Assembly (NCBI GenBank): GCA_002369255.1
Contig: DFFO01000104.1
Span: 1-61,300 of the forward strand
Direction: 5' to 3'
DNA length: 61,300 nt
From: Lachnospiraceae bacterium UBA3774
GTDB taxonomy: Bacteria > Bacillota > Clostridia > Lachnospirales > Lachnospiraceae
Shown here: positions 1,416-53,237 of the stretch, in pieces
How the letters are laid out: each line of letters opens with the position of its first letter
Numbering within the stretch: the first letter of the stretch is position 1
Program-made: the position numbers and the translations under genes
Notes under the pieces: generated by a model
Seen by the model: only the letters and a program-made list of their open reading frames with translations
What the model was told of the DNA's origin: nothing
Database searches by the model: none

Positions 1416-4400
1416 ATGAAGTTATTCAAGAAGTTCTGCGCTCTGTCTCTCGCAGTTGCGATGACGGCGGGTATTCTTACCGTTCCGTCAGTCAATGCTT
1501 TCGCTGCGGCAGAGGGTACCGGTGGAACTTTGGTTCATCAGGGAGGATATACGGGATACAAGGGAACCGTAAAAGCCTATCTGTCAGACCTGCTGGATAC
1601 TGATCGGATGGAGTATGCTCATGGCAATATTGAGACGGATCAGTTTACTGCAGACAAGTCTTTCCAGGGAGACGGTTCAAAAGTATATCCTATTTATCTT
1701 TGGAACAACGCCCATTCAGTAAACGTCGTTAATCCCGGAAATCACCCGAATGGCAGAGAGATCACGACCATGGCCGAAGGCACGCATACCTTTATGGCAA
1801 CGGACATAGTTCTCGGCTATACGGGAAAGTATTTCGACAAGGGCCTCGGCGGACATCTGGTTAATACCGAAAGTGAAAATTATGAGCCCAGCACTGTTGT
1901 CTTCGATATCAGCGGCGTAGGCGCGACGAGATTTTATGCGGTTGCAGGACTTACCGGAGATGCGGCAAACAAGCCTACTACCCTGGTAGAAAACACAAAT
2001 GATTACGGCGTAACTTTTGCTGTTTATGGCAGTAATGCTGAAGAATATGCCGACGACATGGAATTCACCCTGATTGCTTCCGTTGATGAAATCGGCGGAT
2101 ACGGAACTGACACCGCAAGCAGTAAGGTTTACAATACTGCCGAGTTTAACGTATCCGTTTCCGACTACAATTTCATTAAGCTCGTTGCGGAATCTGACGG
2201 AAATGCCGGCGGCGGCTCCTATGCATGGGGCGAAGCGGCTCTGTTCAATCCCATGTCTTCACAAAGCACCATTTCTTCCACAGGAAACTTTAGTGGAAAA
2301 GAAAGCAATGTCATTGGAAGCAGTATCGTATATCTTTCTTCGCTGACCGAGGAATCCAGCTATGTTGTCGGTTACAAGAATGATGTTGCTTCACCTCTTG
2401 AATTTTATAAAGACCGCAGCTATCCTTTGAGAATTAAAGCGGTGGGACACGCTAGTGATCTGGATCTGCTCAGCTTTTATGCCGGCACCGGTACAAGAAG
2501 AGAGATATATAACGGACAGTCCGGAATGTCGACTGACGAGAACGGAATATACCGCGTAGAAAATGGCGTCACTTACAGGCCTACTACTATTGCCCTGTCA
2601 TATAAGGGTGTGGTTTTTGACCATGGTCTTTCTGCGATAGCGGCGCCTCAGGCCAAGAAGCCGACCAGTATCGTATATGATGTCAGCAGTCTCGGAGCGG
2701 ACCGTTTTTATTCTGCGGTTGGCATGACGAGCCGTGCAAATGCAGACAATTCGACTAATTATCCTTACAAGCTTACTTTCAGTGTTTACGGAAGCAAGTC
2801 AGGAACGGCGGATTCTGATTTTGAATTACTTGAGTATGTATCCAATATCAGAGCATATCTTGCCGGAGAGATTGACGTAGATATATCCGGATATAAATAT
2901 CTGAAGCTGGAAACTACAACAGATGCTGCAGACAACAAGATCAACTATGATAACAGTTATCAGTTTAGCAGCGGCTTCGCATGGGCCGACGCCTGTGTTT
3001 ACAAAACAGCGACGAAGCTTTCAAATCTCGGCTCTTCAGTAGTCTATGAAGGCCATGAAGAAGCTCAAAACGTCACATATCTTTCTGATGTTTACAGCAC
3101 CAATATGGTTGATTCCTTTGTTATCGGAGCGAATTCAAGCGAGACCAACCCTCGCGAATACAAGCTCGATACGAACTGGGACAACGTTGTATACGTATGG
3201 ACCGGTACTCAAAGCGGCAGATATCAGGTTCCCGGCGGTACCCCTTCGGTCAGCCCCAGAACCCTTACCGTAACAAATGCTGACGGAACCAAATCGGAAG
3301 TCACCTATGACAGATCCGAAATAGTTCTTGGCTACCGCGGAACAAAATTCGAAAAAGGCCTTGCGGCACTTGTTTCGGCAAGCACCAACAAAGCTTCTTA
3401 TATAGTTTATGACGTTCGTGATCTTGACGCGGATTATTTCTACGCGGTAACAGGTCTGACCGGAAATGCAAACAAAAACAGCACCAGTGAATTCCCGTAC
3501 AAGCTTACCTATACTCTGTACGGAAGCATGGATGATACTTATACGGAAGATACTGAATTTGAACCTATCATGTATGCTTCCGATATCAGAACTTATCTTA
3601 CGGCTGAATTTAAAGCTGATATCAGCGACTACAATTTCATCAAGCTCGAGACCGTGAGCAACGGAGCCAACTCCAGCGGATCGTTTGCATGGGGCGGCGC
3701 GTGCGTTTACAGCGTGGAAGAGCCTACTCCCGAACCCGTTAACACTATGGACAGAATATCCGTTACGGTAGGTTCTGACCTTACGCTTCATGTCCTTGCA
3801 AATATGGCCGATGACGTTACGGCTCCCGCAGTTCGTTTCTCAGGCATCAATGAAGCTGTCACAGTAGAAGGAACTGAAAACGGCGACAGATATCAGTTTG
3901 ATTTTGCCGGCGTTTACTCGCAGTTTATGAGCACTACCATTACCATGGAGCTTCTTGACGATCAGGAAGAAGTCCTTGAGACCAAGACGTTCAGCGTTGC
4001 TGATTACTGCGATACGATCCATGAACTGGGCTCCTCGTCGGAAGGACTGGAATCGCTTGGTCTTACCGCGGCTGAGTTTGCAAAGCTTGATACGCTGCTT
4101 GCCGATATGCTCGAATACGGAGCGGCGGCTCAGAATTATATTGACTTTAATACGGACAATCTTGCAAACCAGGCTGATTGGGTAGCCGTATCAAAGACGC
4201 AGTCCTTTACTGCTCCTGCTACGGACGTTAGTTCTTCGGCTCATACAACTGTCGACAATATCCGCAGTGCGGCGCTTCGTCTGAAAAACGACGTCAGATT
4301 CATCATCAGAGTCAACGCTGCAAACGCAACCAAGCTGACGGTTTCTGCCGGCGGAGCAAGCAAGCAGTACGTTCTTGCGGATATGACAAAGGCAGGCGCG

Positions 4401-4616
4401 AATGCTTATGTTATTGAAGGCGACGGAATGTATGCGACAGATTTCGATACTGTTTACACATTCACTCTTGCTGACGATGCCACGACGTATCACACTGTTA
4501 CGTACAGCGTCAATTCGTACGTTGCTTCCAAGTGTGCAAGTTCTGACGAAAACCTTGCGGCTATGGTTAAGGCCGTATACAACTACGGTGTTTCGGCAGA
4601 CGCATACAACAACTAA
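1416..4616 (+). CDS. secreted protein with three NPCBM-like carbohydrate-binding-type modules plus a shared C-terminal domain
   Basis: AAGGAGG RBS and signal peptide MKLFKKFCALSLAVAMTAGILTVPSVNAFA. There are three ~230-aa repeats (about nt 1527-2249, 2313-3005, 3057-3713). Each carries YLSD..., GY.G..F.KGLG, V.DxSG.GA.RFYA..G.TG, the VYGS core of VTFxVYGS/LTFSVYGS/LTYTLYGS, Y.F(Y)[IL]KLE and [SF]AWG.A/FAWADA. This parallels the NPCBM (GH98-associated) module pattern YLSDL...GLG.H...F.A.VGVDD...V.F.V..DG...HADWA.A as I recall it. Confidence 0.7.
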   Translation: MKLFKKFCALSLAVAMTAGILTVPSVNAFAAAEGTGGTLVHQGGYTGYKGTVKAYLSDLLDTDRMEYAHGNIETDQFTADKSFQGDGSKVYPIYLWNNAHSVNVVNPGNHPNGREITTMAEGTHTFMATDIVLGYTGKYFDKGLGGHLVNTESENYEPSTVVFDISGVGATRFYAVAGLTGDAANKPTTLVENTNDYGVTFAVYGSNAEEYADDMEFTLIASVDEIGGYGTDTASSKVYNTAEFNVSVSDYNFIKLVAESDGNAGGGSYAWGEAALFNPMSSQSTISSTGNFSGKESNVIGSSIVYLSSLTEESSYVVGYKNDVASPLEFYKDRSYPLRIKAVGHASDLDLLSFYAGTGTRREIYNGQSGMSTDENGIYRVENGVTYRPTTIALSYKGVVFDHGLSAIAAPQAKKPTSIVYDVSSLGADRFYSAVGMTSRANADNSTNYPYKLTFSVYGSKSGTADSDFELLEYVSNIRAYLAGEIDVDISGYKYLKLETTTDAADNKINYDNSYQFSSGFAWADACVYKTATKLSNLGSSVVYEGHEEAQNVTYLSDVYSTNMVDSFVIGANSSETNPREYKLDTNWDNVVYVWTGTQSGRYQVPGGTPSVSPRTLTVTNADGTKSEVTYDRSEIVLGYRGTKFEKGLAALVSASTNKASYIVYDVRDLDADYFYAVTGLTGNANKNSTSEFPYKLTYTLYGSMDDTYTEDTEFEPIMYASDIRTYLTAEFKADISDYNFIKLETVSNGANSSGSFAWGGACVYSVEEPTPEPVNTMDRISVTVGSDLTLHVLANMADDVTAPAVRFSGINEAVTVEGTENGDRYQFDFAGVYSQFMSTTITMELLDDQEEVLETKTFSVADYCDTIHELGSSSEGLESLGLTAAEFAKLDTLLADMLEYGAAAQNYIDFNTDNLANQADWVAVSKTQSFTAPATDVSSSAHTTVDNIRSAALRLKNDVRFIIRVNAANATKLTVSAGGASKQYVLADMTKAGANAYVIEGDGMYATDFDTVYTFTLADDATTYHTVTYSVNSYVASKCASSDENLAAMVKAVYNYGVSADAYNN
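3747..4613 (+). other. shared ~290-aa C-terminal domain, copy 1
   Basis: MDRISVTVGSDLTLHV...LLADMLEYGAAAQNY...TVTYSVNSYVASK...VKAVYNYGVSADAYNN. It is collinear with 8361-9227 and, more distantly, with 55506-56378. Confidence 0.6.
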
Positions 4617-4686: not shown

Positions 4687-4817
4687 CTTAAAGCTCTTTG
4701 AATGTGTGTGATGTTGTTTGATTTTGTTTCTATCACATTTTTGGTATTTAAAATATAATTCAGATAAGAGGATTAAATTTGATAAAAGCGTTCAATTGTT
4801 TTTTTAGGAGAAAATGC

Positions 4818-7800
4818 ATGAAAAAATTGCTATCCCTGCTGCTGGCCGCTGTCATGGTCACAAGCACAATATCATTTGTCGGTACCGATGGTGCGGTGTA
4901 TGCGGACGACGAAATAACCCTGACATACGGTACGGATGTCCCGGCGTTTACCACGACTGCCATTCAGTATTCGGCAGACCCGTATGACTGCGGACAAGGT
5001 CACGGACAGATACTTTTTGATACGTCCGCAGACAGCTATATAAACGCGGAAATCGATTCATATAGGAATACCCTTGCCGGAAACGGCTTTTCAATACGCG
5101 GCTCCGAGAGCAATATCGGTCTGGACGCGGACGGCGATCCCGCAGGAAACAGATTTTTTACGTATTACAAGGAAAATGCGGGCGGCGGATATACTGTGGT
5201 TCACTGCAATTACTTTGCGGCTCTGGATCAGTTCCGTATTATTTACGGCGTTGAGAGCTACCTTGGAGCGTCGGCTCCCGTAACGGGCTATACCGCAGTC
5301 AAGGAGCCTTCGATGTCTATCATCGGAATGAGCGACAGTCTGGAATGTCTTGTTGTTCAGCTTGCAGACGGCAGCTTTATCATTATTGACGGCGGAAAAG
5401 CCTGGAATGAAGAAAGAACTGTCAGCTATACCGACGACAACGGAAACACCCGCACAATGGATTATTATCTTGATTACCGCGCTGACATGGAAGCGCTTTA
5501 TGACTTTCTTGACACAAACAAACCTCAAGGCGAGTCAAAACCGCAGATCACGTGGATGATCACTCACGTTGACGGAGACCATATCTGCCTTCCGTACAAG
5601 TTTATGGAATCCTCGTTCGGAAGGCTTGTAGACGTAAATACTGTCATTTACAACTTCCCGGGCAGCAGCGTTTTGAATTCTCTTGCGGATGCAAATTCCG
5701 GTATGTATGTAAGCAGCTTCATGAATGCTTTTTCGGCAGCTGATCATTTTATTTATCATACCGGAGAAAAATTATATTTGCCCGGCTGTGAAATAGAGTT
5801 TCTTATGACTCATGAGGATTATTGGCCGAATCCTGTGCCGACCGGAAACCATGCCAGCGGCGCATGGAGATTTAACTTTACGGACAGCGGAAAGACGGCA
5901 TATATGCTCGGAGACTGTGAAACAGGCTTAAATGACCAGATGGCGGAGGTTTTCGGATCGTACCTTGACAGCGATATCCTTCAGCCCGCGCATCACGGGT
6001 CAAACGGAGGTACCGTCAAGCTGTACAGCCTTCTGCACCCTTCCGTTATTTTCTGGACATGCGGAGATTTCCCTTTTTACTATGACAACCGTCACACGGG
6101 AACGAATCCGAAATATGCATTTAACGCCATCCTGAGAAACATGGAAGGAGTGACGCACTTTACCAATTCCGCTACTCATACGCTGGATATTGCTACTCTT
6201 ACCGAGGTGCAGAGCGGAGGATCGCTTGTGCACCAGGGAGCATATTCGGGAAGAAAAGGCAACGCGAGAACCTATCTTTCTGATCTGTATGGTACGGAGC
6301 AGATGAAATTTGCCTTCGGAAGCGATGAAACCGCGCCTTTTTCCGCTGACAGCTCATTCCTTGGAGACGGCTCGCAGATATATCCGATATATCTGTGGAA
6401 CAGAACGCATACCGTAAACGTTGTACATCCGACTACTCATCCAAACGGTCGAAGCATTGCCACGTTGGCTGAGGGAAGCACGACTTTTTATGCAGATGAT
6501 ATAGTCCTCGGTTATCAGGGAAAACGCTTTGAAAAAGGGCTCGGAGGTCATTTGACGGACGATAAGGTCTTTACAAACAGAGTTGTTTTCGACATAAGAG
6601 GGGCTGCCGGCGAGAGATTTTACGCGATAGCGGGTCTGACCGGGGATGCGGCCAACCGTCCTTCTACGCAGACAAGCGCGCAAAGCTATGGCGTTACGTT
6701 CAAGGTTTACGGAAGCAAAGCGGACAATTACAGTGATTCCATCAGCTATACGCTGCTTTCAAGCGTTGACGGCGTAGGCGGATACGGCAGCGATTTAAAC
6801 AGCAGTAAAACCTACAACACCGCAGAGTTTGATATTGACGTAAGCGGCTGGAACTTCATAAAGCTCGAAGCAGTCAGCGACGGTTCCGGAGCCGGAGGCT
6901 CCTATGCATGGGGCGACGCTTGCCTTTACAGTAAAAAAACTTCTCAAAGCACGATTTCAAGGCCCGAAAATCTTGAAGGCAAAAATGAGTATGCAGAAGA
7001 TATAGTTTATCTTTCGGATCTTTATTCCACGGAGGCGAAAAAAGACAGCTTCGTTATCGGAGCAAGCAACAATACCGCTGCTCCCAGAGCATATGCCGCA
7101 GATACGAATTTTGAAAGAAAAGTCTACGTATATAAGGGCACGGGAACCGCTACCGGAAACAGAACGGAGGTTTCTGCAAATACTACTCTTAACATTACGG
7201 GCGCGGATGGCAGTATATCTGCCGTGCCGTATTCTCCTTCGGATATAGCTATAGGCTATCGGGGCACGAAGTTTGAAAAGGGGCTCGGAGGTATTGCCTC
7301 GCCGGGCCACTGCAAACCCGCTTCCGTTATATATGATCTGTCCGGACTGGGCGCGGAGCGTTTTTATGCGGTCGGAGGCATTACCGGTAGTGGAAATGCT
7401 AATGATGCAACCAATAACAACAGAAAATTGAGTTTTAACGTTTACGGCAGCAAAACAGGCATGAATGCGTCCGATTTTGAGCTTGTTTCTTACACGTCGA
7501 ACGTATATGCGTATCTTCTGGCGGAATTTGATCTCGATATATCTCAGTACAGATATCTTAAACTCGAGGTCGAATGCGACAATACCACAAACAGCGGAAA
7601 AAGCTTTGCATGGGCTGACGCCTGCGTATACAGGGTCGGAACGCCGCAGGAACCCGAGCATCTCACAAATATCGGCACCTCGGGCGGCTTTGGCGGTCAT
7701 CCTGACGCGGTAAACGTTACGTATCTTTCGGACGTTTACGATACAAATATGGTCGATTCGTTTGTTATCGGAGTAGGAGGAAACGAAGCCGCTCCCCGTG

Positions 7801-9230
7801 AGTTCAAGAAAGATACCAACTGGGACAATATGCTCCTCGTATGGTCGGGAACTGCGAACGGACGATGGCAGATAACGGCCGCAAACAGCCCCAGAACGAT
7901 TTCCGTAAGAAACGAAAACGGCACGACTTCTTCTGTCGTTTATACCAATGATGAGATTGCTTTGGGTTATCGCGGCACAGAATTTGAAAAAGGTCTTGGA
8001 GGACTTGTTTCGCCAAGCACAAATAAGTCCGCATATATCGTATATGACGTAAGGGATCTTGATGCAAAGTATTTTTATTCCGCAGTCGGTCTGACCGGAA
8101 ATGCAAATGCAAACAATACGGGAACTTATCCTTACAAGGTCACGTTTACGCTCTACGGGAGCAAAAACCGGGATTATAACGAAAACAGCGTCTTTATTCC
8201 TCTCGCATATGCGTCGGATATAAGAGCATATTTCGGCGCGGAATTCAATGTTGATATCAGCGGCTACAATTATCTCAAACTCGAAGCGGTAAGCGACGGC
8301 GGGAACAGCGGCGGATCGTTTGCCTGGGGCGGAGCCTGTGTATATGATACAAATGCTGTTATGGACAGAGTTTCGATGACTGCAGGTTCGGATCTTACGC
8401 TGCATATCCATGCGAAGATGTCTGAGGGTACAACCGCCCCCGGCGCGCGTTTTTCCGGAATCGGAGATTCTGTGACGATATCCGGCGTAAAAGACGGAGA
8501 GAGGTGGCGTTTTGATTATCCGGGTGTATATTCTCAATATATGAATGAGGATATCACGGTTGAGCTTCTTGACGATGATTCATCGGTCATTGAAACAAAA
8601 ACATTTTGTACAGCGGCTTATTGCGACAGCATACACGAATTGGGGCAGACCGCAGAGGGTCTTGCCGCATTGGGGCTGTCGGCTGCAAAATTTGCAAAAC
8701 TTGAAACGCTGCTTGCCGATATGCTTGAGTATGGCGCCGCTGCACAAAATTATGCGGCCTACAAGACGGATTCTCTTCCGAACGGAGCCGCATGGGTAGC
8801 CTCTGCAAAAACAAAGAGCTTTACGGCTCCTCAGAGCGCGGCGAGTTCTTCCGTGCGAGGCCGCAAAGATTATATTCGCAGCGCGGCGCTTTATCTTTCA
8901 AAAGATATCAGCTTCATAATAAACGTTTCGGCGTCTCAGGCCACCAAACTTGTAGTCACTGCTTATGGCGGCACCGCCAAAGAGTATCCGCTTTCTTCTG
9001 CTAAAAGAAACGGCAGTGTTTACGTTGTTCTGGGAGAAGGTTTGCCCGCCACGGATTTTGACACGGTTTATACTTTTGCGCTTACAGACGGTAAGACCGT
9101 TTATCACACTGTCACATACAGCGTTAATTCCTATGTAGCGTCAAAACACGGAAGTGACGATGCGCTGCTTGCGGCGGTGGTAAAGGCGCTCTACAATTAC
9201 GGAGTATCCGCTGACAATTACAATGACTGA
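4818..9230 (+). CDS. secreted ComEC-type MBL-fold module fused to three NPCBM-like modules and the shared C-terminal domain
   Basis: Start moved to ATG 4818, which lies 7 nt after AGGAG. Signal peptide is MKKLLSLLLAAVMVTSTISFVG. The N-terminal ~420 aa are collinear with lipoprotein 19268-21016 (QLADGSFIIIDGG, ITWMITHVDGDHI, QPAHHGSNGG, FWTCGDFPFY). Three NPCBM-like repeats follow, then the C-terminal domain. Confidence 0.75.
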   Translation: MKKLLSLLLAAVMVTSTISFVGTDGAVYADDEITLTYGTDVPAFTTTAIQYSADPYDCGQGHGQILFDTSADSYINAEIDSYRNTLAGNGFSIRGSESNIGLDADGDPAGNRFFTYYKENAGGGYTVVHCNYFAALDQFRIIYGVESYLGASAPVTGYTAVKEPSMSIIGMSDSLECLVVQLADGSFIIIDGGKAWNEERTVSYTDDNGNTRTMDYYLDYRADMEALYDFLDTNKPQGESKPQITWMITHVDGDHICLPYKFMESSFGRLVDVNTVIYNFPGSSVLNSLADANSGMYVSSFMNAFSAADHFIYHTGEKLYLPGCEIEFLMTHEDYWPNPVPTGNHASGAWRFNFTDSGKTAYMLGDCETGLNDQMAEVFGSYLDSDILQPAHHGSNGGTVKLYSLLHPSVIFWTCGDFPFYYDNRHTGTNPKYAFNAILRNMEGVTHFTNSATHTLDIATLTEVQSGGSLVHQGAYSGRKGNARTYLSDLYGTEQMKFAFGSDETAPFSADSSFLGDGSQIYPIYLWNRTHTVNVVHPTTHPNGRSIATLAEGSTTFYADDIVLGYQGKRFEKGLGGHLTDDKVFTNRVVFDIRGAAGERFYAIAGLTGDAANRPSTQTSAQSYGVTFKVYGSKADNYSDSISYTLLSSVDGVGGYGSDLNSSKTYNTAEFDIDVSGWNFIKLEAVSDGSGAGGSYAWGDACLYSKKTSQSTISRPENLEGKNEYAEDIVYLSDLYSTEAKKDSFVIGASNNTAAPRAYAADTNFERKVYVYKGTGTATGNRTEVSANTTLNITGADGSISAVPYSPSDIAIGYRGTKFEKGLGGIASPGHCKPASVIYDLSGLGAERFYAVGGITGSGNANDATNNNRKLSFNVYGSKTGMNASDFELVSYTSNVYAYLLAEFDLDISQYRYLKLEVECDNTTNSGKSFAWADACVYRVGTPQEPEHLTNIGTSGGFGGHPDAVNVTYLSDVYDTNMVDSFVIGVGGNEAAPREFKKDTNWDNMLLVWSGTANGRWQITAANSPRTISVRNENGTTSSVVYTNDEIALGYRGTEFEKGLGGLVSPSTNKSAYIVYDVRDLDAKYFYSAVGLTGNANANNTGTYPYKVTFTLYGSKNRDYNENSVFIPLAYASDIRAYFGAEFNVDISGYNYLKLEAVSDGGNSGGSFAWGGACVYDTNAVMDRVSMTAGSDLTLHIHAKMSEGTTAPGARFSGIGDSVTISGVKDGERWRFDYPGVYSQYMNEDITVELLDDDSSVIETKTFCTAAYCDSIHELGQTAEGLAALGLSAAKFAKLETLLADMLEYGAAAQNYAAYKTDSLPNGAAWVASAKTKSFTAPQSAASSSVRGRKDYIRSAALYLSKDISFIINVSASQATKLVVTAYGGTAKEYPLSSAKRNGSVYVVLGEGLPATDFDTVYTFALTDGKTVYHTVTYSVNSYVASKHGSDDALLAAVVKALYNYGVSADNYND
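5082..6200 (+). other. ComEC/COG2333-type metallo-beta-lactamase-fold module (domain within CDS 4818-9230)
   Basis: Motifs IIDGG, H-V-D-G-D-H (HxDxDH rather than the canonical HxHxDH) and AHHGS. This is the pattern I associate with the ComEC C-terminal MBL family. Confidence 0.55.
8361..9227 (+). other. shared ~290-aa C-terminal domain, copy 2
   Basis: MDRVSMTAGSDLTLHI...LLADMLEYGAAAQNY...TVTYSVNSYVASK...VKALYNYGVSADNYND. Confidence 0.6.
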
Positions 9231-9293: not shown

Positions 9294-9325
9294 CCCCGGC
9301 ATTCCGAAAGGGATGCCGGGTTTTT
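9294..9325 (+). terminator. strong rho-independent terminator
   Basis: 11-bp stem CCCGGCATTCC/GGGATGCCGGG (one G-T wobble), GAAA tetraloop, then TTTTTT. Confidence 0.85.
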
Positions 9326-9919: not shown

Positions 9920-12900
9920 TTAGCTTTGTTCTTCTTCGTCTTTCTTACTGCGTTTCTTTCCGGCGATTATAAAAGCTGTAACGCCACCGCCGATAAGTGC
10001 GATACTGCCGGCTGCAATGGCAATAATCGTTCCCGTTCCGAGAGAAGAACCGCTTTCCTGAGCAGCTGCTGTATCATCCACAGTTGTTACTTCCGCATCC
10101 TTGGTTTTGTCCGGTCTTTCGGGCTTGGGAAGATTAAGCGGACCCTCGGTAGAGTAGAAGCTGGCTCCGGCCCAGGCGCAGGCACTTGAATCATGAGCTG
10201 TGCCGCCGCAAACGACCGCAAGCTTGAGGATCTTTACGCCGGTGATATCAACATCGATAAATTCGCCGGACATCTTCTTTGTAAGGTTTTCGGACTCGCC
10301 GATCTTTACAAAGACTCCGTCGCCGTAATCAGCATAAATGCGGTAAATAACGCCCTGAGATTTGCCGGCTTTGCCGTTTGAGTTCGTGATACCAAGCGCT
10401 GAATAGAAGCGGTTTGCTCCAAGCTCGCTGATATCGTAAAGAGTCCAGGACTCAATGCTGTAATCTACGGGAAGAGCCGGGTTCTTCGGGTGCATGCCGA
10501 GTCCTTCGAAGAAGAGCGCTTCCTGCTCGCCGATACAGATAACGTCCTCGGGTTTTCCGTAAGGGTGATCTATAGTACTGGGCTGTCCGTAAGGATAAGT
10601 AGCGTTTGTGGTGTTGGACGAATCCAGATATGCAAGCTGAGTGATAAATACGCTGTTCTTGTCATATTCAAACGGCAGACCCTGGTAGAAACCGTCTTTT
10701 GAAGGATAATAGTTGTCGGTCGGCTGAGCCTTCGGAGGGATCTGCGGGCCGATGTGATTTGTATGAATATTTACCGAGCCTTTTTCGTCGTATTTGTAGA
10801 CGCAGGCATTTGCCCAGAAGACCGCGCTCGAAGCATGAGTGGAAGTCGCGCTTACAACAGCGAGCTTCAAGTATTTCGCATCGGAAATATCCAGGTCGAA
10901 TTCACCCGACATATAGCCCAGAATAATATCTGACTGTCCGATGAGCTTATAGCTGCCGTTTCCTTTGTAATCAGCGTAAACGCGGAAGATGGTACCCTTT
11001 GAATTGCCGTTTTTACCCTTTGTGTTGGTAAGTCCGAGGGCGGAGTAGAAACGGTTAACATCCAGATTTCTAAGGTCGTAAATCGTATAAGACTCTATTG
11101 AACCGTTTATCGGCTGCTTGGGATTCTTCGGATGCATACCAAGTCCTGTGTAGAAGAACTGGTTGTTTTTGCCTATTCTTGCGATCGCTGCCAGCGAACC
11201 GTAAGGATGGTTATAGTTTGTGGGCTGTCCTTTGGGATACTTGTCATTGGTAGTATTGGAAGAGCCCTTGTTGTCCATCTTTGAGAGGAACTGTACGGAG
11301 TTTTCAGCAGCCTTTAAGTTCTCGGTATAATCTCCCTTGCTTGCCTTGTAATTGAGCAGATAGTTCAAAGTGGAGTTGTTGGTGTGTATCTTGACAGAAC
11401 CGCTCTTTTGATATTTGTAAACGCAGGCGTTGCCCCATACAGAGCCGCAGGAGATATTGCTTCCGGTGGCGAATACCATGAGCTTGAGCTTTTTAACGCC
11501 TGTGATATCAACGTCAAATTCACCGGTTTTTGTCTTTGATATATTATCGGACTCGGCAAGTGGAATAAAATTGCCGTCGCCGTAATCCGCATAAACACGG
11601 AAGTAGATCGGCTCGCTCTTGCCCTTCTTGGCGTTTTCGTTGGTAAGACCTACTACTGCATAGAAACGGTCTACCTTCATCTTTGAAAGATCATAGGTGG
11701 TCCAGGATCCTTTTGTATTGGCTGCGGGCTTCGGATGAACACCGAGACCCTTCTTGATCTTCTGGGCCTTTTTGCCGATGATGATATTGCCGATTTCGCC
11801 GTACGGATGATCAAGGGTTGTGGCCTTGCCCTTCGGGAAGTCTTTATTTGTGGTATTTGAAGCATCGGTGTACTTCATATCCGAGAGGAATTTTACCGAT
11901 CCCTTCGCCGCGTTGACGTGGGTAGTATAATTGCCGCTCTTGTTGGGAGTATAGGTTCCCGGAAGAATGATTTTGTTTCCGGAGAAGGACTCGCCGTTTT
12001 TGTCATACTTGAATACACAGGCGTTCGCCCAGGCGGAACCTGAAGAATAATGGTTCTCTCCGGGAGCAATGATCTCGAGTCGGAGCTGTTTTGCTCCGGT
12101 AATGTCTACGAGGAATTCGCCGCTCTTTTTCATGGTGATGACATTAGACTGTGCAAGCAGCTTTGAAGAACCGTCTGCATAATCGCCGTAAACGCGGAAG
12201 ACAACTCCCCTGGAGGCGCCTTCCTTGCCCTTGCTGCTTGTAAGACCTACTGCTGCATAGAAGCGGTCCACGTTCATTTTGGAAAGGTCATACGTGGTAG
12301 ACGCAACATACTGCGCGCTCAGAGCTTCGGGATGAACGCCGAGGCCGACTGAAAACGCGGTATCTTTTTCACCGATCTTAAAGACTCCGCTGGTAGTGCC
12401 GTAAGGATAGTTCTTGGTAGTGGGCTTTCCGCCGTTGTTGATGGAATCTGTGTAATCGATATTTGAAAGGTACTTGATCGATCCCTTCTTGACGCCCTTG
12501 GCTCCGCTGTAATTGCCGTTTGATGAGGCGGTATATTTTCCGGGAAGGTTCGGTGCGTATTTGTTTGTTATAACTCCTCCGGAAACGGATTCCGAATAAT
12601 ACTGAGGAACCGGATCCTGTTTGAAGGTGTAGGTTACGTTATTTGTCGTTCCCTTAGCATATATGGGAAGCTTTACGGTATCTTTCCAGCCGTTGCTTTC
12701 ACTGAGACGGAATACGTAATCATCAGCCTTGTTTCCGATGTAAGCGCGGACGTTTACGTAATCGGGACGGTGCTTCATAAGATCGTTGTTATCGTTCCAG
12801 ACTACGGAGATATCATAATCTTTTTTGGGAAGATACGTAAGAGTTGCAATGCCGCCCTCTATCGAAACTTCGTATTCTTCGGGAAGTCCTTCGAATTCGA

Positions 12901-15310
12901 CGGTATAATCGGCTTCGGGTCCGCAGACTCCGGTGGATTTGTAAACACACGCATTTGCCCAAACGCTCGCGCTTGACCAGTTGTTTGTGCCTGCGGGATA
13001 AACAGCGAGTTTGAGTTTCTTGACGCCGCTGATGCCCACGTCAAATTCGCCGCTGTCTTTTTTCACGATCTTGTCAGACTCGGCAAGGAGCACATAGCTT
13101 CCGTCGCCGTAATCTCCGAATACGCGGAAGATAACGCCCTGCGAATTGCCGGCTTTACCGTTCGCGTTTGTAATACCTACTGCGGCATAGAAGCGGTCCG
13201 CGCCAAGAGAACTGATATCATAGGTGGTCCAGGATTCGCCTCCGGAAATGGAGGGGGCTTCCGGATGGACGCCGATTCCTCTGGTGAATTTTGTATTGTT
13301 TTCACCGATGATAAAGGAATCCGACGAGCTGCCGCCGTAGGGATAATTTACCGTGGAAGCGGCTCCCTTGATATTTGAGGATTCTATATAGGTAAGAGAA
13401 GAAAGCTGGGTAAGATTGGCATTTCCTGCGACGTCAGCCGCTCCGTTAAACGAACCGTCGCCCGCACGATACGCGCCGGTCGAAGTGGAATAAAGATCGG
13501 TCCACGTATAAGACCAGTCGTTGCCGGCACTTATTTCTTCGGCGGCTCCGAGGTTCTTACCGTCTTTTTTGAGCTGAACTTTAAGGCTGTCGGGGCGAAT
13601 GCCGGGCTCGTTGTCCGAATCGTCCCAGACTGCTTTGAGAGAATAGTCAATAAGCTGGCGGTAGGTACAGATGATGATGCGCCTGCCGCTGTAAACTGCC
13701 GCATAGTCGCTGGGAAGATCGGAGACCTTGGCAGTATAATTAACAATTGAGAGATCTGTTTCGCTTTTGTGCTTTGGAAGATCGGTCCAGGTGTAAGACC
13801 AGTTGTTTTCCGAACTGAGTACTGCAGAAAGACCGGTATCGGTATCGTCCGCAAAAAGCTGAACGTTCAGCGATGAAGGGCGGGAGGAAACGGTCTCGTC
13901 TACCCAGAGAACGTCAGTAGTGTATGAAACCTTCTGCTCGGCAGGATTGTAGGTACAGGTCGCCTTTATGACCTCACCGTCTGCAGAAACAGAATAGTAT
14001 TCGGGTTCCTCGGTCACAGCTACGCTGTAATTGATAGGAGTAGTCTGCCCGGTCTTGCGCGCGGGAAGAGACGTCCAGGTATATACCCAGCCGTCAGAAG
14101 CGTAAACTGAAACAGGGCTGCCGTAGGCTTCGCCGTCAGCATAAAGCTGCAGCTCGAGAGAAGAAGGGCGAACGCCGTAAACGTCATTTTTGTCGCTCCA
14201 GTTTACGGAAACCGTAAAGTCTGTGTCATAAACGAACTTATTTGTCAGGATTCCGTCTGAATAAGCGGCTTTGTAGTTCGGAACCGAAGCGGTTACGCCG
14301 TATGTTACTTCCTCACCTGCCGCATTGTACTTGGGAACGGAACTCCAGGTGTATGAAAAGTTGTTTTCCGCATTTAAGGTAACGGGGGCGCCTGTTTTAT
14401 TTCCGTCTGCTGTCAGATAAGCCAAAAACGAACTTGGACGGTAGCTTTCATTTCCCGCGTCGTCCCACACGGTCTGTACGGAAAAAGTCGAGCGCTCCGT
14501 TTTGTACAGACAGGCGTCTGCCCAGACAAAGGTTCCGCTGCTGTTTCCGCCGTCGCTGACCGTTTCAAGCTTCAAATATTTGTAATCGCGGATATCTACG
14601 TTGAACTCGGCCGTCAGGTAAGCTCTGATGCCCGTAGCATATGAAAGAAGCTCGAAATCGCTGTCGTCCGTGCCGTCCTTGCTGCCGTATACGTTGAAGG
14701 TAAGCTTGTAAGTATATGGCGAAACAGCCGGATTGACGTTTGACTGTCCGGTAATACCTACAACGGAATAGAAATATTCCATATCGAGTCCCTGCAGATC
14801 ATACACGACGGACGCGGGCTTCTTGTTGCTTGCAGAAACAAGCGCAGCCAGGCCCTTTGCATATTTGGTGCCGCGGTATCCTATGGCTATGTCGCCACGG
14901 TTGTAAACCACGTTGCTCGTAGTACCGTCGGCAGCTTTGATCTGAAGAGTTCTCGGACTGTTGGATGCGTTTACGGCTTTTCTGGAAGCGCCGCCGTCCT
15001 GGCTGACGCCCGTCCACACGAAAACGGTGTTGTCCCAGTTTGTGTCGAGCTTGAAATCACGGGGCTTTGTTTCACTCGAACCCGTACCGATGACAAAGCT
15101 TGATACTTTCTTTTCGGTGCCGTACAGGTCGGAAAGATAGGTGACGCTTTCCGAAAGCACATGAGCGTCCTTGCCTTTCGGAGCTCCGGAAGCTCCGATG
15201 TTTGAAACGGGAGCCGCCTGCGCAAAGACTGTGTCCGCAGCCGGTACGAACAGCGTGACTGTCATAACGACCGAAAGCACAAGACACAACGTTCTTTTCA
15301 TTATATTCAT
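9920..15310 (-). CDS. giant membrane-anchored surface protein (1796 aa) with six NPCBM-like modules and five CnaB-like repeats
   Basis: AGGAGG RBS and signal peptide MNIMKRTLCLVLSVVMTVTLFVPAADTVFA. Six modules are marked by [DEN][RY]F[Y][AS].[VL]G[IL]T and [VI][FY]RV[FY][GA]DY. Five repeats match V.W.D..N....RP....V.L..DG......L....W.Y.W..LP, the Cna B-type pattern. The C-terminus is a hydrophobic helix IIAIAAGSIALIGGGVTAFIIAG followed by KKRSKKDEEEQS. Confidence 0.8.
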   Translation of the reverse strand: MNIMKRTLCLVLSVVMTVTLFVPAADTVFAQAAPVSNIGASGAPKGKDAHVLSESVTYLSDLYGTEKKVSSFVIGTGSSETKPRDFKLDTNWDNTVFVWTGVSQDGGASRKAVNASNSPRTLQIKAADGTTSNVVYNRGDIAIGYRGTKYAKGLAALVSASNKKPASVVYDLQGLDMEYFYSVVGITGQSNVNPAVSPYTYKLTFNVYGSKDGTDDSDFELLSYATGIRAYLTAEFNVDIRDYKYLKLETVSDGGNSSGTFVWADACLYKTERSTFSVQTVWDDAGNESYRPSSFLAYLTADGNKTGAPVTLNAENNFSYTWSSVPKYNAAGEEVTYGVTASVPNYKAAYSDGILTNKFVYDTDFTVSVNWSDKNDVYGVRPSSLELQLYADGEAYGSPVSVYASDGWVYTWTSLPARKTGQTTPINYSVAVTEEPEYYSVSADGEVIKATCTYNPAEQKVSYTTDVLWVDETVSSRPSSLNVQLFADDTDTGLSAVLSSENNWSYTWTDLPKHKSETDLSIVNYTAKVSDLPSDYAAVYSGRRIIICTYRQLIDYSLKAVWDDSDNEPGIRPDSLKVQLKKDGKNLGAAEEISAGNDWSYTWTDLYSTSTGAYRAGDGSFNGAADVAGNANLTQLSSLTYIESSNIKGAASTVNYPYGGSSSDSFIIGENNTKFTRGIGVHPEAPSISGGESWTTYDISSLGADRFYAAVGITNANGKAGNSQGVIFRVFGDYGDGSYVLLAESDKIVKKDSGEFDVGISGVKKLKLAVYPAGTNNWSSASVWANACVYKSTGVCGPEADYTVEFEGLPEEYEVSIEGGIATLTYLPKKDYDISVVWNDNNDLMKHRPDYVNVRAYIGNKADDYVFRLSESNGWKDTVKLPIYAKGTTNNVTYTFKQDPVPQYYSESVSGGVITNKYAPNLPGKYTASSNGNYSGAKGVKKGSIKYLSNIDYTDSINNGGKPTTKNYPYGTTSGVFKIGEKDTAFSVGLGVHPEALSAQYVASTTYDLSKMNVDRFYAAVGLTSSKGKEGASRGVVFRVYGDYADGSSKLLAQSNVITMKKSGEFLVDITGAKQLRLEIIAPGENHYSSGSAWANACVFKYDKNGESFSGNKIILPGTYTPNKSGNYTTHVNAAKGSVKFLSDMKYTDASNTTNKDFPKGKATTLDHPYGEIGNIIIGKKAQKIKKGLGVHPKPAANTKGSWTTYDLSKMKVDRFYAVVGLTNENAKKGKSEPIYFRVYADYGDGNFIPLAESDNISKTKTGEFDVDITGVKKLKLMVFATGSNISCGSVWGNACVYKYQKSGSVKIHTNNSTLNYLLNYKASKGDYTENLKAAENSVQFLSKMDNKGSSNTTNDKYPKGQPTNYNHPYGSLAAIARIGKNNQFFYTGLGMHPKNPKQPINGSIESYTIYDLRNLDVNRFYSALGLTNTKGKNGNSKGTIFRVYADYKGNGSYKLIGQSDIILGYMSGEFDLDISDAKYLKLAVVSATSTHASSAVFWANACVYKYDEKGSVNIHTNHIGPQIPPKAQPTDNYYPSKDGFYQGLPFEYDKNSVFITQLAYLDSSNTTNATYPYGQPSTIDHPYGKPEDVICIGEQEALFFEGLGMHPKNPALPVDYSIESWTLYDISELGANRFYSALGITNSNGKAGKSQGVIYRIYADYGDGVFVKIGESENLTKKMSGEFIDVDITGVKILKLAVVCGGTAHDSSACAWAGASFYSTEGPLNLPKPERPDKTKDAEVTTVDDTAAAQESGSSLGTGTIIAIAAGSIALIGGGVTAFIIAGKKRSKKDEEEQS
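13477..14488 (-). other. block of four tandem CnaB-like repeats inside CDS 9920-15310
   Basis: Roughly aa 275-612, for example TVWDDAGNESYRPSSFLAYLTADG...FSYTWSSVPKY and AVWDDSDNEPGIRPDSLKVQLKKDG...WSYTWTDL. Confidence 0.55.
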
Positions 15311-15470: not shown

Positions 15471-15542
15471 TATCTATATCAAAAAACCCCTATAGTTTAT
15501 AATTTTTACTAAAGTAAAAAGGAAAGGACCCGGAGGATGTTC

Positions 15543-16505
15543 ATGCGAAATGACAAAACAACAAAGGGAAAAACCGCAAGCGCGCCCATAGTTCCCGGAT
15601 CAAGGGGATATGTGCGCAAGCGGCTGCGTGAGAGCTGGCAGTGGTATCTGCTCCTTCTGCCCGCGCTCATATACATCCTTATTTTTAATTACGGACCTAT
15701 GTATGGTATTCTGATGGCATTTCAGAATTACAGACCCAGTAAGGGCATTGCGGGAAGTCCGTGGGTAGGATTCGACAACTTTATCAGGTTCTTTAAGTAT
15801 CCGTATTTCTGGAAGATGATAAGAAACACGCTTTCCATCACGCTGCTGTCGCTTGCCACCTTCCCGTGCGCCATCATATTCGCGCTTTTCTTAAACGAGC
15901 TTACGCACGTCAAGTTCAAAAAAGTCGCGCAGATGGTCAGCTATATGCCTCACTTTTTATCGGAAGTTGTCGTTGTATCGCTGGTAATGCTGATGCTGGA
16001 TCTGAGCAACGGTCCGGTCAACAACCTGATTGCGGCGCTCGGCGGAGAAAGAACCTATTTTATGGGTGAGCCATCGGCCTTTGCGCCAATATATGTTTTC
16101 TCGGGCTTATGGCAAAACCTTGGATGGGGGACTATTCTATATATATCCGCCCTCTCGTCCGTGCCGTCCGAGCAGATCGAAGCGGCCAAGATTGACGGAG
16201 CGAGCAGGTTCCAGGTAATGTGGCATATCAATATACCTGCCATTCTTCCCACCATCATGATCACGCTTCTTATGCGTATGGGACGTATCATGAGCCTCGG
16301 ATACACAAAGATCCTCCTCATGGACAACGATCTTGTAGCCGACGTATCAAACGTTATTTCCACGTATACGTACAAGGTAGGTATTCTTGGAGGCCAATAC
16401 AGCTACTCGACCGCGATAGGACTGTTCAACAATATTATCAACATTATTTTGCTGCTTTCGTTTAACCGGCTGTCAAAGAAGCTGACAGACATCAGTCTGT
16501 TTTAG
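15543..16505 (+). CDS. carbohydrate ABC transporter permease (LplB/MsmF-like)
   Basis: Multi-pass membrane protein with the EAA-loop-like segment EAAKIDGASRFQVMWHINIPAI. I prefer ATG 15543, which lies 6 nt after GGAGG, over 15537, which abuts the RBS. Confidence 0.85.
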   Translation: MRNDKTTKGKTASAPIVPGSRGYVRKRLRESWQWYLLLLPALIYILIFNYGPMYGILMAFQNYRPSKGIAGSPWVGFDNFIRFFKYPYFWKMIRNTLSITLLSLATFPCAIIFALFLNELTHVKFKKVAQMVSYMPHFLSEVVVVSLVMLMLDLSNGPVNNLIAALGGERTYFMGEPSAFAPIYVFSGLWQNLGWGTILYISALSSVPSEQIEAAKIDGASRFQVMWHINIPAILPTIMITLLMRMGRIMSLGYTKILLMDNDLVADVSNVISTYTYKVGILGGQYSYSTAIGLFNNIINIILLLSFNRLSKKLTDISLF

Positions 16506-16525: not shown

Positions 16526-17455
16526 ATGAGTAAAGTATCACTTAACAAATCTACAATAAAAAACACAAAAGGCGATAAGGTATTCCTGTTTATCGTTTAT
16601 TCGATGGTTATCCTTGTTGTTCTTTTGTGCGCTTATCCTCTTTATCTGACTGTCATTGCTTCGATCTCGGATCCCTATGCCGTTTACAGCGGCAAGGTAA
16701 ACCTGATCCCGCACGGTTTTTCGGTGAACTCATACAAGCTTGTATTTACGAACAGCGCCATCTGGAGAGGATACAGAAATTCGATTATATATACCGTGGC
16801 AGGAACTGCATTCAACCTGTTTTTGACTATTCCCAGCGCCTACGCGCTTAGCAAAAAGAGGATGTACGGCAGAAACTTCCTGATGACTGTATTTCTTATC
16901 ACGATGTATTTCGGCGGCGGAATGATACCGCACTACCTGCTGTACAAAAATATGGGTCTTATCGATACGCCCTGGATTCTCATTATCAATGGCGGCGTAA
17001 GCGTGTATAATGTAATCGTAACGAGGACTTATTTTCAGAACAACATTCCGGAAGCCCTGTTTGAAGCGGCAAGGATCGACGGTGCGAGCGAGCTCAGATG
17101 CTTTTTTAAACTGGTGCTGCCCCTCAGTGCGCCCATTATTGCCGTTATTACGCTTTATTATGCGGTCGGGCACTGGAGCGGATATTTTTCAGCCCTCATC
17201 TATACGCACAACCAGGAACTGCAGCCATTGCAGCTTGTGCTTAGAAATATATTGATCCTGAATGAGTCGGCATATACCGACGCGCTCCAGTCAGGAGACG
17301 CGGAACTGATAGCTGACGCGTCGCGGCAGGCTTATCAGGCATTAACTATGAAATATGCCCTGGTGTTCATATCCAGCGCACCTATGCTGGCAATTTATCC
17401 TTTCGTACAAAAACATTTTGTCAAAGGTATAATGGTCGGTTCACTTAAGGGCTGA
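16526..17455 (+). CDS. carbohydrate ABC transporter permease (LplC-like)
   Basis: AGGAGG RBS, hydrophobic multi-pass protein, EAA loop EAARIDGASELRCFFKLVLPLSAP. Confidence 0.85.
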   Translation: MSKVSLNKSTIKNTKGDKVFLFIVYSMVILVVLLCAYPLYLTVIASISDPYAVYSGKVNLIPHGFSVNSYKLVFTNSAIWRGYRNSIIYTVAGTAFNLFLTIPSAYALSKKRMYGRNFLMTVFLITMYFGGGMIPHYLLYKNMGLIDTPWILIINGGVSVYNVIVTRTYFQNNIPEALFEAARIDGASELRCFFKLVLPLSAPIIAVITLYYAVGHWSGYFSALIYTHNQELQPLQLVLRNILILNESAYTDALQSGDAELIADASRQAYQALTMKYALVFISSAPMLAIYPFVQKHFVKGIMVGSLKG

Positions 17456-19249: not shown

Positions 19250-19267
19250 AAAGTGCGAGGCTCTAAA

Positions 19268-26982: not shown

Positions 26983-27786
26983 ATGAAAAAACTGCCATGG
27001 GAGGGTGCTTTCCCTCCTTTCCGCATATTCGGGAATCTGTATTTTGTCGGTACTGTGCCGGCTTCTACTCACGTGGTAGATACCGGAGAGGGCCTTCTTG
27101 TCTTTGATCCGGGCTACCACCAGAGCCTGCATCTTGTAATAGACGGAATGCACAGACTCGGACTTGATCCGAAAGACACCAGATATATTTTCAATACGCA
27201 CGGACATATCGATCATCTGGGAGCCGCAAGGGCGCTGTCTCTTATGACCGGAGCAAAAACCGTGTTGGGACGAGCCGACAGACAGTATGCAAACGGGGAA
27301 CTGGATCTTACTTATGCCAAAGAGCTCGGAATGGTCTACAAAGAAGTTTTTGAACCGGACATCCTGTGGGATGGCGGCGAAAGCCTGACCGTGGGAAATA
27401 CCACGGTGACCTGTATGGCTACTCCCGGACATACTCCCGGCGCGCTTTCGTATTTCTTTAACGTTACGAACGGCAAAAAAACTTATCGCGCCTGTCTTCA
27501 CGGCGGTATGGGGATCAATACGATGAGCAGGGAATATCTTGAAAAATACGGGCTTTCCTTTTCCTGTCGTGACGAATTCAAAAAGGCAATGGAAAGGCTT
27601 TCCAGGGAAGACGTCGATATTTTTCTCGGAAATCATATGCAGCACAATCATACGCCGGAGCGTTATGAGCTTGTTATGGCGGGCGATGAGGAGGCTTTTG
27701 TTCATCCCGGCGAATCGGGTGAGTATGCGCTTTGGGCGATAGAGAACATGCAAAACATGATAAAAGAGGAAAGCGAAAATGAGTGA
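26983..27786 (+). CDS. MBL-fold metallo-hydrolase (canonical HxHxDH type; possible lactonase)
   Basis: NTHGHIDHLGA and TPGHTPGA. It is not related to the ComEC-type modules at 5082-6200 and 19268-21016. Confidence 0.7.
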   Translation: MKKLPWEGAFPPFRIFGNLYFVGTVPASTHVVDTGEGLLVFDPGYHQSLHLVIDGMHRLGLDPKDTRYIFNTHGHIDHLGAARALSLMTGAKTVLGRADRQYANGELDLTYAKELGMVYKEVFEPDILWDGGESLTVGNTTVTCMATPGHTPGALSYFFNVTNGKKTYRACLHGGMGINTMSREYLEKYGLSFSCRDEFKKAMERLSREDVDIFLGNHMQHNHTPERYELVMAGDEEAFVHPGESGEYALWAIENMQNMIKEESENE

Positions 27787-36227: not shown

Positions 36228-36260
36228 TTTTTCTCCATTCAGACATAAACAAAGTGATTG

Positions 36261-36307
36261 AAACAAAATCAGAGTAAATATTAACATAAGGCAAAACAAA
36301 ATCAAAG
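36261..36307 (+). promoter_or_regulatory. direct repeat AAACAAAATCA(G/A)AG x2, 33-bp period (candidate AraC operator)
   Basis: Copies lie at 36261-36274 and 36294-36307, between the divergent regulator (start 36227) and the isomerase operon (start 36396). Confidence 0.45.
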
Positions 36308-36395
36308 CGATTTTTTATACAAAAACAGACAAAAAAACTAACCGTCAAGACAGAAAAACGGTTGAATCAAATAATTATTGTTCGGAGGAATAAAA

Positions 36396-39289: not shown

Positions 39290-39298
39290 GGAGAGAAA

Positions 39299-45529: not shown

Positions 45530-45554
45530 TAAATATTTTTTAAGGAGAAAGAAT

Positions 45555-46370: not shown

Positions 46371-46372
46371 AG

Positions 46373-47194: not shown

Positions 47195-47227
47195 ATATTT
47201 TACTTAAGAATAACAGGAACATAGAAA

Positions 47228-48674: not shown

Positions 48675-48685
48675 GAGGTAAGGAT

Positions 48686-49450: not shown

Positions 49451-49452
49451 GC

Positions 49453-50502: not shown

Positions 50503-50561
50503 GTGGTTTCTGACAGGTTGCACCGATTTTTACCGATCAGCCGCAAAAAAGGACAGGGGTT

Positions 50562-53022: not shown

Positions 53023-53237
53023 TAATCTAATCAGTTTCATGAAAAAAATTTCATTTCAGAAAATGTTATGTTTTTTATGAAGGAATATTATATTTTTTTG
53101 CATAAAATATTGAATTATTTCATTACAGTGATAAAATCATTAAATAGAGACAGTATCATTTTTTGGATAAAAAGCCGTGTTGCGGAAAGTCATTCCGTTT
53201 CCCGGCGCGAGAATTACATAGGGAGAATACAGCCATT

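Follow-up and report, generated by a model that had tools for sequence, protein, structure and literature searches.

The locus and the gene at 4818-9230

We analysed a stretch of 61,300 nucleotides (nt) from Lachnospiraceae bacterium UBA3774 (assembly GCA_002369255.1, contig DFFO01000104.1), here called the window, and concentrated on the forward-strand gene at 4818-9230, which encodes a secreted multidomain protein of 1470 amino acids (aa). In this protein, an N-terminal module that, judged by sequence profile and predicted structure, is a metallo-beta-lactamase (MBL) fold of the ComEC type is followed by three NPCBM-like repeats and a C-terminal domain. An earlier note on this DNA, made from the letters alone, had described the signal peptide, the three NPCBM-like modules and a ComEC flavour of the MBL motifs, and all three descriptions held up in the analysis below.

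The mechanical call of the open reading frame opens at TTG 4779. ATG 4818 is the likelier start because an AGGAG ribosome-binding site sits 7 nt before it. From this ATG, the N-terminus reads MKKLLSLLLAAVMVTSTISFVGTDGAVYA/DDE, which by eye has the pattern of a Sec-type signal peptide (aa 1-29, 4818-4904) with predicted cleavage after VYA, and this is the only strongly hydrophobic segment of the protein. Upstream, a promoter-like site (ATCACA-16-TATAAT, 4732-4759) together with the AGGAG site spans 4732-4810 on the forward strand, both as consensus matches only, and a strong intrinsic-terminator-like hairpin with 8 G-C pairs out of 11 and a T-run behind it lies at 9295-9320 on the same strand. 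The gene therefore looks like a transcription unit of its own. A stem-loop with a T-run, seen by eye past the stop codon of the preceding gene, also suggests a separate transcript.

Fold and active-site motifs of the N-terminal module

The conserved N-terminal module covers 436 aa (aa 30-465). Pfam misses the fold in this protein: Lactamase_B (PF00753), which the earlier note had named as a check, did not match even at E <= 10, and the N-terminal 492 aa gave no useful Pfam match. A single-sequence phmmer search of the PDB returned just one chance match, a reductase, and the matches to TIGR00361 (ComEC_Rec2; E 0.018) and PRK11539 were weak. It is therefore the profiles and the predicted structure that support the assignment to the MBL fold. 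Among 5.8 billion proteins searched, 112 relatives were found (E 4e-126 to 2e-43), 49 of which, 33-51% identical to the UBA3774 protein, made up the alignment used for conservation; 34 of these 49 reach PF00753 at E <= 0.01. When the family profile was compared with the PDB, significant matches were obtained only to ComEC, namely to the beta-lactamase-like (BLACT) domain of Moorella glycerini (9ic4) and to the cryo-EM structures 9vc6, 9vc9, 9vcb and 9vcf, with E values from 4e-6 to 2e-3.

The predicted structure led to the same protein. An AlphaFold model of the module, built on the family alignment, had a mean pLDDT (predicted local distance difference test) of 91 and a pTM (predicted template modelling score) of 0.91, and its best Foldseek match in the PDB was 9ic4 (E 4.5e-12; TM-score 0.71 normalised to target). 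CmlA, FrsH, an MBL arylsulfatase, yeast PDE1 and RNase J came next, at E values from 1e-7 to 1e-4, and all 18 fold matches at E <= 0.001 were MBL-fold proteins. The ComEC-type core is thus assigned to aa 161-465 (5298-6212) by both Foldseek and profile matches. It is preceded by an alpha/beta subdomain (aa 30-160, 4905-5297) that is part of the family alignment and is absent from ComEC; this subdomain is modelled with a pLDDT of mostly 80-95 and found no confident fold match when searched alone.

All five metal-binding motifs of the MBL superfamily are kept in the module, with Asn replacing His at motif III as in ComEC. Three of them, IIDGG, THVDGDH and AHHGSNGG, had been picked out before and were found at aa 189-193, 249-255 and 391-398. 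Motif I (IIDGG, 5382-5396) contains the invariant D191. Motif II (T-H250-V-D252-G-D254-H255, 5562-5582) has H250, D254 and H255 invariant. At the motif III position, N344 (5847-5849) is invariant and aligns to an Asn in the NNNS stretch of 9ic4. The bridging Asp of motif IV (G-D), D366 (5913-5915), is invariant too; opposite it in the alignment stands the Asp of the A/G-D motif in ComEC, taken to be D700. Motif V (AHHGSNGG with H392 and H393, 5988-6011) aligns to the HHGS of ComEC and has HHG invariant and the Ser variable. In the profile alignment with 9ic4, the significant stretch pairs N344 with an Asn of NNNS, GD with AD, and HHG with HHGS; a second stretch, not significant alone, pairs DGG with VDGG and TH.D.DH with STHPDADHI, that is, motifs I and II. 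In ComEC itself, the corresponding residues are H598-x-D600-x-D602-H603, D700, H725 and S728 (PMC12455585), and the replacement of the motif III His by Asn has been described (PMC8579336).

Across the 49 aligned sequences, D191, H250, D254, H255, H314, E333, D334, N344, D366, H392 and H393 are invariant. The metal ligands are thus kept throughout, apart from position 252, which is Asp in 33 sequences and His in 16. Because these ligands are invariant at only 33-51% identity, we argue for a catalytically intact, working two-metal hydrolase. The HxDxDH form of motif II is a property of the UBA3774 protein, as the earlier note had stated, and not a trait of the whole family: among the 193 members with a readable motif, its third position is His in 102 and Asp in 91.

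The similarity to ComEC raises the possibility that the protein is an extracellular DNA or RNA nuclease, parked on a glycan matrix by its NPCBM repeats and serving scavenging or the remodelling of biofilms that contain extracellular DNA. The closest solved structure is a nuclease domain, RNase J is also among the fold matches, and motifs II to V follow the ComEC pattern. The two modules, both extracytoplasmic, have DGG, HxDxDH, the motif III Asn, (G/A)-D and HHG(S) in common. The ComEC domain is an Mn2+-dependent phosphodiesterase and nuclease that degrades DNA in vitro (PMC8579336, PMC12455585) and has no monoesterase activity (PMC8579336). However, the protein is not a ComEC, as neither a membrane channel nor an OB fold was found among Pfam and NCBIfam domains, DUF4131 included, and Pfam detected no other DNA-binding domain. 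Moreover, it differs from ComEC in the added 130-aa N-terminal subdomain and in its acidic surface; the module as a whole is strongly acidic (net charge -33, isoelectric point 4.5; family median net charge -22). The Ser of HHGS, which contributes to the nuclease activity of ComEC (PMC12455585), is present in just 52 of 236 family members. The surroundings differ as well: ComEC works with the DNA-uptake machinery, whereas the module here is joined to NPCBM repeats and linked to sugar importers. Wherever the context of a family gene is informative, it concerns sugar import; the genes lie in CUT1-type oligosaccharide import operons alongside AraC sensors and glycoside hydrolases (GHs), not in loci for nucleoside or nucleotide uptake, and the repeated fusion to NPCBM points to a glycan substrate. 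The earlier note had listed a glycan-directed phosphodiesterase, sulfatase or esterase, or a nuclease for extracellular DNA; of these, the context favours a glycan-directed role, and we regard a DNA or RNA nuclease as quite unlikely. Haloferax Hvo_1477 was considered as an exported ComEC-like nuclease and rejected, since its paper describes a thermonuclease-type lipoprotein and not a ComEC homologue.

NPCBM repeats and C-terminal domain

Downstream of the module, Pfam NPCBM (PF08305) scores 60.4 bits in the protein (cut-off 23.9), and its three matching stretches mark NPCBM-like units at aa 484-705 (6267-6932), aa 729-939 (7002-7634; best Pfam stretch 810-936) and aa 967-1177 (7716-8348). Each unit is about 220 aa long, compared with 137 positions in the Pfam model. 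The remaining C-terminal domain (aa 1180-1470, 8355-9227) is common to two other secreted proteins of the window. Pfam gave no useful match for the C-terminal 296 aa, and an AlphaFold model of the domain, made on a three-sequence alignment, was too poor to use (pLDDT 56).

One of the two proteins is encoded directly upstream (1416-4616, forward strand). This secreted paralogue of 1066 aa has three NPCBM units and the C-terminal domain, is 55% identical to the last ~1000 aa of the 4818-9230 product over ~1045 aa, and contains no MBL module. Since the same scaffold exists there without the enzyme, the MBL module appears to behave as a plug-in on a common binding scaffold. The paralogue could also be cited for a non-catalytic adhesin or binding module that merely retains the MBL fold, as could the adhesin-like Cna_B/NPCBM proteins in the neighbourhood. 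The metal-ligand positions, invariant in 49 sequences that are only 33-51% identical to the protein, are a conserved active-site signature and make such a non-catalytic role extremely improbable.

The other protein, of 1072 aa, is encoded at 53163-56381 (forward strand) and has no Pfam match. It shares the ~250-aa C-terminal domain (27% identity, E 4e-13) with the same Y-x-YGV-x-A-x-xY tail, and its gene sits downstream of a capsule-type locus at 45519-52508 (Wzz, tyrosine kinase, CpsB and Polysacc_synt_2). The common C-terminal domain may be a surface-retention module.

The sugar-import locus in the window

The earlier note had placed the gene inside a sugar-import locus. It in fact adjoins the import operon, from which it is separated by a divergently transcribed gene at 9920-15310 (reverse strand) for a surface protein of 1796 aa with five Cna_B and six NPCBM domains, a C-terminal membrane anchor and the basic tail KKRSKK. 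The link to import nevertheless proved real and even stronger than had been proposed, as a paralogue of the module is encoded within the operon, in relatives the fusion gene itself is, and fusions to NPCBM recur in both domain orders. The Cna_B/NPCBM surface gene is also kept beside the importer operon in two related loci (L010 and L012).

The operon, on the forward strand, contains two permeases of an ATP-binding cassette (ABC) importer (15537-16505 and 16526-17455), followed by a lipoprotein oligosaccharide-binding protein of 588 aa (17483-19249), which matches FusA (5g62, E 1e-21), AlgQ1/2 and Smon0123. This product had been a candidate for a further MBL paralogue and was rejected as such, being a binding protein of the AlgQ/FusA type. 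Directly after it lies the gene for the paralogous MBL-family lipoprotein (19253-21016; likely start ATG 19268, lipobox FAAGC), which is 49% identical to the N-terminal module over 437 aa. The next gene (21035-23290) encodes a membrane-spanning AraC-family regulator of 751 aa with a GGDEF_2-like domain. Its two hydrophobic segments (~aa 8-30 and 284-310) flank an extracytoplasmic domain of ~250 aa, and the regulator is kept in syntenic loci; by this layout, it looks like a one-component membrane sensor for the substrate of the locus.

Further genes of the operon encode a CE4 protein, an HpcH-family (GarL/HpaI-like) aldolase, a 2-hydroxyacid dehydrogenase, an aldo-keto reductase, a B3-like MBL, a DUF624 protein, a GH3 and a GH28-like protein with rhamnogalacturonidase-like matches. 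No NCBIfam match of the cytoplasmic operon enzymes reached its equivalog cut-off, and these matches did not reveal which sugar is processed. The B3-like MBL (26983-27786, forward strand) is a cytoplasmic protein of 267 aa that scores 163 bits, below the 240-bit cut-off. The operon copies of L001 and L014-L017 keep it, L044 and L094 have it close to family members, and it may act in the same pathway as a lactonase or esterase.

Besides the two MBL proteins, the secreted products of the region are the binding protein, the NPCBM protein encoded upstream and the divergent Cna_B/NPCBM protein. None of the further enzymes of the operon, GH3, the GH28-like protein and CE4 among them, carries a signal peptide, which leaves the MBL proteins as the sole enzymes of the locus predicted to be extracellular.

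Farther along the window (34114-40135), an operon under a PocR/AraC-type regulator encodes a glycerol-1-phosphate-dehydrogenase-like Fe-ADH_2, a sugar isomerase with a weak sulfoquinovose-isomerase-like match, an FGGY kinase and a class II aldolase.

The family and its loci in related genomes

A HMMER search of 1.84 billion cluster representatives retrieved 1593 clusters at E <= 1e-30, or 2885 when the threshold was E <= 1e-10; the family has at least 1593 clusters at 50% identity. Among 250 retrieved members, 51 are stand-alone modules (350-500 aa), 137 carry an additional N-terminal domain (500-680 aa) and 52 are larger multidomain proteins. An N-terminal hydrophobic segment is present in 189 of the 235 full-length members, and 117 of these 189 show a lipobox-like motif. 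A survey of the phylogenetic distribution, which had been suggested at the outset, found at least 349 relatives in a scan of one genome per GTDB species. The best 78 genome loci all come from metagenome-assembled genomes (MAGs) of Lachnospiraceae, Oscillospiraceae and unclassified Clostridia from ruminant, other animal and human guts. No cultured isolate is among these 78, so that there is no obvious laboratory strain for genetics.

NPCBM domains accompany the module in more than one arrangement. They are C-terminal to it in P0120 and P0124, N-terminal in P0127, P0142 and P0146, and encoded beside the module gene in L018, L022 and L026. Fusion in both orders together with conserved adjacency argues for a functional coupling between the enzyme family and NPCBM-bound glycans. 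A distant subfamily of ~620-650 aa is often found with large secreted proteins (~498, 678, 884 and 893 aa), as in L009 (11919-18815), L089 (4788-6824) and ~17 other loci. Pfam matched none of these partners, and the 893-aa one also had no sequence match in the PDB. They form a second conserved neighbourhood of the family.

The import locus of the window is syntenic in eight loci of Lachnospiraceae and Oscillospiraceae MAGs, each with one to three MBL genes. In L010 and L012, the MBL-NPCBM fusion gene stands inside the operon, directly after the binding-protein gene, and in L012 it is followed by an MBL lipoprotein paralogue and an AraC regulator gene. L011 has the same left side as the window (HAD, NPCBM protein, fusion gene), and L015 has three MBL genes in tandem. 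In our reading, the UBA3774 protein belongs to a large family of exported MBL enzymes, mostly lipoproteins, of uncultured gut Clostridia that act in concert with oligosaccharide ABC importers.

Three separate contexts elsewhere in the family hint at phosphoester chemistry. In an Acetatifactor MAG (L088), genes for a cytoplasmic GDPD, an MBL lipoprotein, PGM/PMM, NAGPA (phosphodiester glycosidase family) and HAD occur in one ABC operon. In L052, L053 and L057, two to seven MBL lipoprotein genes in tandem are directly preceded, on the same strand, by a gene for a cytoplasmic GDPD, and a divergently oriented GDPD gene stands beside three MBL copies in L056. In L092, a binding protein and an MBL lipoprotein are followed by an alkaline-phosphatase lipoprotein and then by Fe-ADH_2, FGGY, GH29, GH3 and GH28. 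Side by side at the surface, a diesterase and a monoesterase form the classic combination for taking off a group attached through a phosphodiester.

Two details of these loci deserve mention in their own right. The longest array, in L057 (4635-18697), consists of the GDPD gene and seven tandem paralogues of ~580 aa, six of them with a clear lipobox, and represents a marked local expansion; L052, L053 and L056 carry two to four copies beside their GDPD gene. The Fe-ADH_2 and FGGY genes that follow the MBL/alkaline-phosphatase pair in L092 recall those of the 34114-40135 operon in the window.

Relation to characterised enzymes

The ComEC-type MBL fold was known already; what is new is its reuse as an exported enzyme family, tethered by carbohydrate-binding modules, in sugar-import loci. 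We found no description of this family, or of any MBL-NPCBM enzyme, in the literature on CBM51/NPCBM combined with MBL and on COG2333. In a similarity-network survey of the MBL superfamily, many clusters, a large ComEC cluster included, remain uncharacterised (PMC7785958). The statement in the earlier note that no characterised enzyme with this architecture was known holds for the family itself and was too strong for the design, which has a precedent. NPCBM/CBM51 glycoside hydrolases likewise combine a catalytic module with NPCBM repeats, although the catalytic partner here is an MBL hydrolase instead.

The nearest characterised analogue by architecture is the pneumococcal Pce/CbpE (2BIB, 1WRA), an exported MBL phosphorylcholine esterase with choline-binding repeats that acts on teichoic acid and thus on a glycan-attached phosphodiester (PMC4929436). 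As in the UBA3774 protein, an N-terminal MBL module is joined to C-terminal repeats that bind a surface polymer. For Silale et al., Pce was then the structurally closest homologue of the ComEC domain, and they noted that Pce has His at the motif II position occupied by Asp in ComEC (PMC8579336). The analogy would be consistent with a housekeeping role, in which the enzyme remodels the envelope of its own producer by trimming phosphodiester-linked groups from teichoic acid or capsule in the manner of Pce. The presence of the C-terminal domain in the secreted protein encoded downstream of the capsule locus points in the same direction, as do the housekeeping contexts of some family members (L004). 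However, Pce has two Zn2+ ions and choline-binding repeats and remodels its own wall, whereas the present family is associated with NPCBM and nutrient import loci. No PDB search with the module gave a sequence or fold match to Pce, and Pfam found no choline-binding repeats in the protein. The family is moreover syntenic with an inducible-looking import and catabolic operon, with the fusion gene inside that operon in relatives, and the tandem arrays, with as many as seven copies, would be better explained by diversified substrate capture. On balance, remodelling of the producer's own envelope seems very unlikely.

MBL-fold sulfatases and the class II cAMP phosphodiesterase (8gyg, 4ojv), which are small-substrate ester hydrolases, share the common fold with the module at E values from 1e-6 to 1e-7. 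These matches are weaker than that to ComEC, with TM-scores of 0.31-0.37 normalised to the query and no match at the profile level. For the MBL arylsulfatase 8gyg, the values were E 9e-7 and TM-scores of 0.37 on query and 0.52 on target, far weaker than for ComEC.

Proposed function

On the background of the observed fold, the conserved metal ligands, the export signals, the NPCBM fusions, the synteny with importers and the lack of any other predicted extracellular enzyme at the locus, we tentatively propose that the 4818-9230 product is a surface glycan-foraging hydrolase, most likely a phosphodiesterase, that is held in place by its NPCBM repeats and feeds the adjacent importer; we put the probability of this proposal a little short of an even chance. 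The catalytic chemistry, substrate and product flow that we infer would run as follows. The NPCBM repeats would anchor the enzyme on its target glycan, and two metals bound by H250, D252, D254, H255, N344, D366 and H392/H393 would activate a bridging hydroxide. The ester attacked by this hydroxide would be part of the glycan or attached to it, and would most probably be a phosphodiester of the kind found in teichoic-acid-like, capsular or other cell-envelope phosphoglycans. The neighbouring binding protein would then capture the released or unblocked oligosaccharides for import, and the cytoplasmic GH3, GH28-like and CE4 proteins, the aldolase and the reductase would complete their breakdown.

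Several observations weigh against this proposal. Identity to ComEC is ~17%, and the family has invariant residues of its own (H314, E333, D334, Q389, W246, W413 and N436), because of which its chemistry may differ from that of ComEC. The family members in phospho-linked contexts are only ~25-35% identical relatives and represent three lineages among ~90 loci; many other contexts carry no functional signal, among them those of P0076 (housekeeping), P0053 (mobile element, Flg_new), P0146, P0096 and P0178. The locus in the window has neither a GDPD nor an alkaline phosphatase gene, and its ABC operon contains no phosphoester-processing gene. The sole phosphatase-like gene, a HAD-IIA at 426-1253, lies on the opposite strand and far to the left in the window. 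By its AlgQ/Smon0123-like binding protein, GH28-like protein, GarL/HpaI-like aldolase, dehydrogenase, aldo-keto reductase and B3-like MBL, the locus looks directed at uronates or sugar acids, and pectic glycans are not known to carry phosphodiesters.

Alternatively, the enzyme could hydrolyse another kind of ester, for example as a lactonase, a sulfatase or an esterase for carboxyl or methyl esters, and so strip a blocking group off acidic, uronate-containing oligosaccharides at the cell surface before ABC uptake. Not only the locus in the window but also its syntenic copies have this uronate or sugar-acid look, through a binding protein that resembles AlgQ1/2 and Smon0123, the latter a binder of unsaturated glycosaminoglycans, through GH28 and through the GarL/HpaI-like aldolase. 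The cytoplasmic B3-like MBL recurs with family members and adjoins an Ldh_2 dehydrogenase gene in L094, the arylsulfatase 8gyg is among the fold matches, and half of the family has the canonical HxHxDH. Because the operon of the window lacks a phosphoester gene and the phospho-linked relatives are so distant, other ester chemistry stays a serious rival, although we consider it somewhat unlikely. By both structure and profile, the best relative is a phosphodiesterase, whose E value is ahead by five orders of magnitude. The motif II Asp and motif III Asn form a hard-ligand site, such as ComEC uses with Mn2+ for phosphoryl transfer (PMC8579336). The locus holds no CE-family or sulfatase-maturation gene, and GDPD, alkaline phosphatase and NAGPA are neighbours elsewhere in the family.

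The glycan-foraging phosphodiesterase proposed here could be extended to the whole family, albeit more doubtfully. The family might then comprise unrecognised extracellular metallo-phosphodiesterases outside CAZy, derived from the ComEC-type fold, with which rumen and gut Clostridia cut the phosphodiester-linked envelope polymers of other microbes into importable pieces. Such polymers include teichoic acids, capsular phosphoglycans and phosphorylated core oligosaccharides. Targeting would then fall to the NPCBM domains, and diversification towards different substrates would account for the tandem arrays of as many as seven copies.

Implications

Annotation of glycan foraging by gut bacteria usually relies on glycoside hydrolases, lyases and carbohydrate esterases. 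In the present locus, with its oligosaccharide importer and cytoplasmic glycosidases, MBL-fold hydrolases that are currently annotated as hypothetical are the sole enzymes predicted to be extracellular, which marks an annotation gap: the family takes the position of the extracellular enzyme in loci without a secreted glycosidase. It also illustrates the reuse of the ComEC nuclease fold outside DNA uptake. If the enzymes do cleave phosphodiesters or other esters in glycans, they would fill in an enzymatic step missing from models of how carbon and phosphorus turn over in rumen and gut, and would offer new enzymes to dismantle teichoic-acid-like or capsular polymers. If, beyond this, the family does consist of phosphodiesterases outside CAZy, the glycans of microbial necromass would be opened as a nutrient niche.

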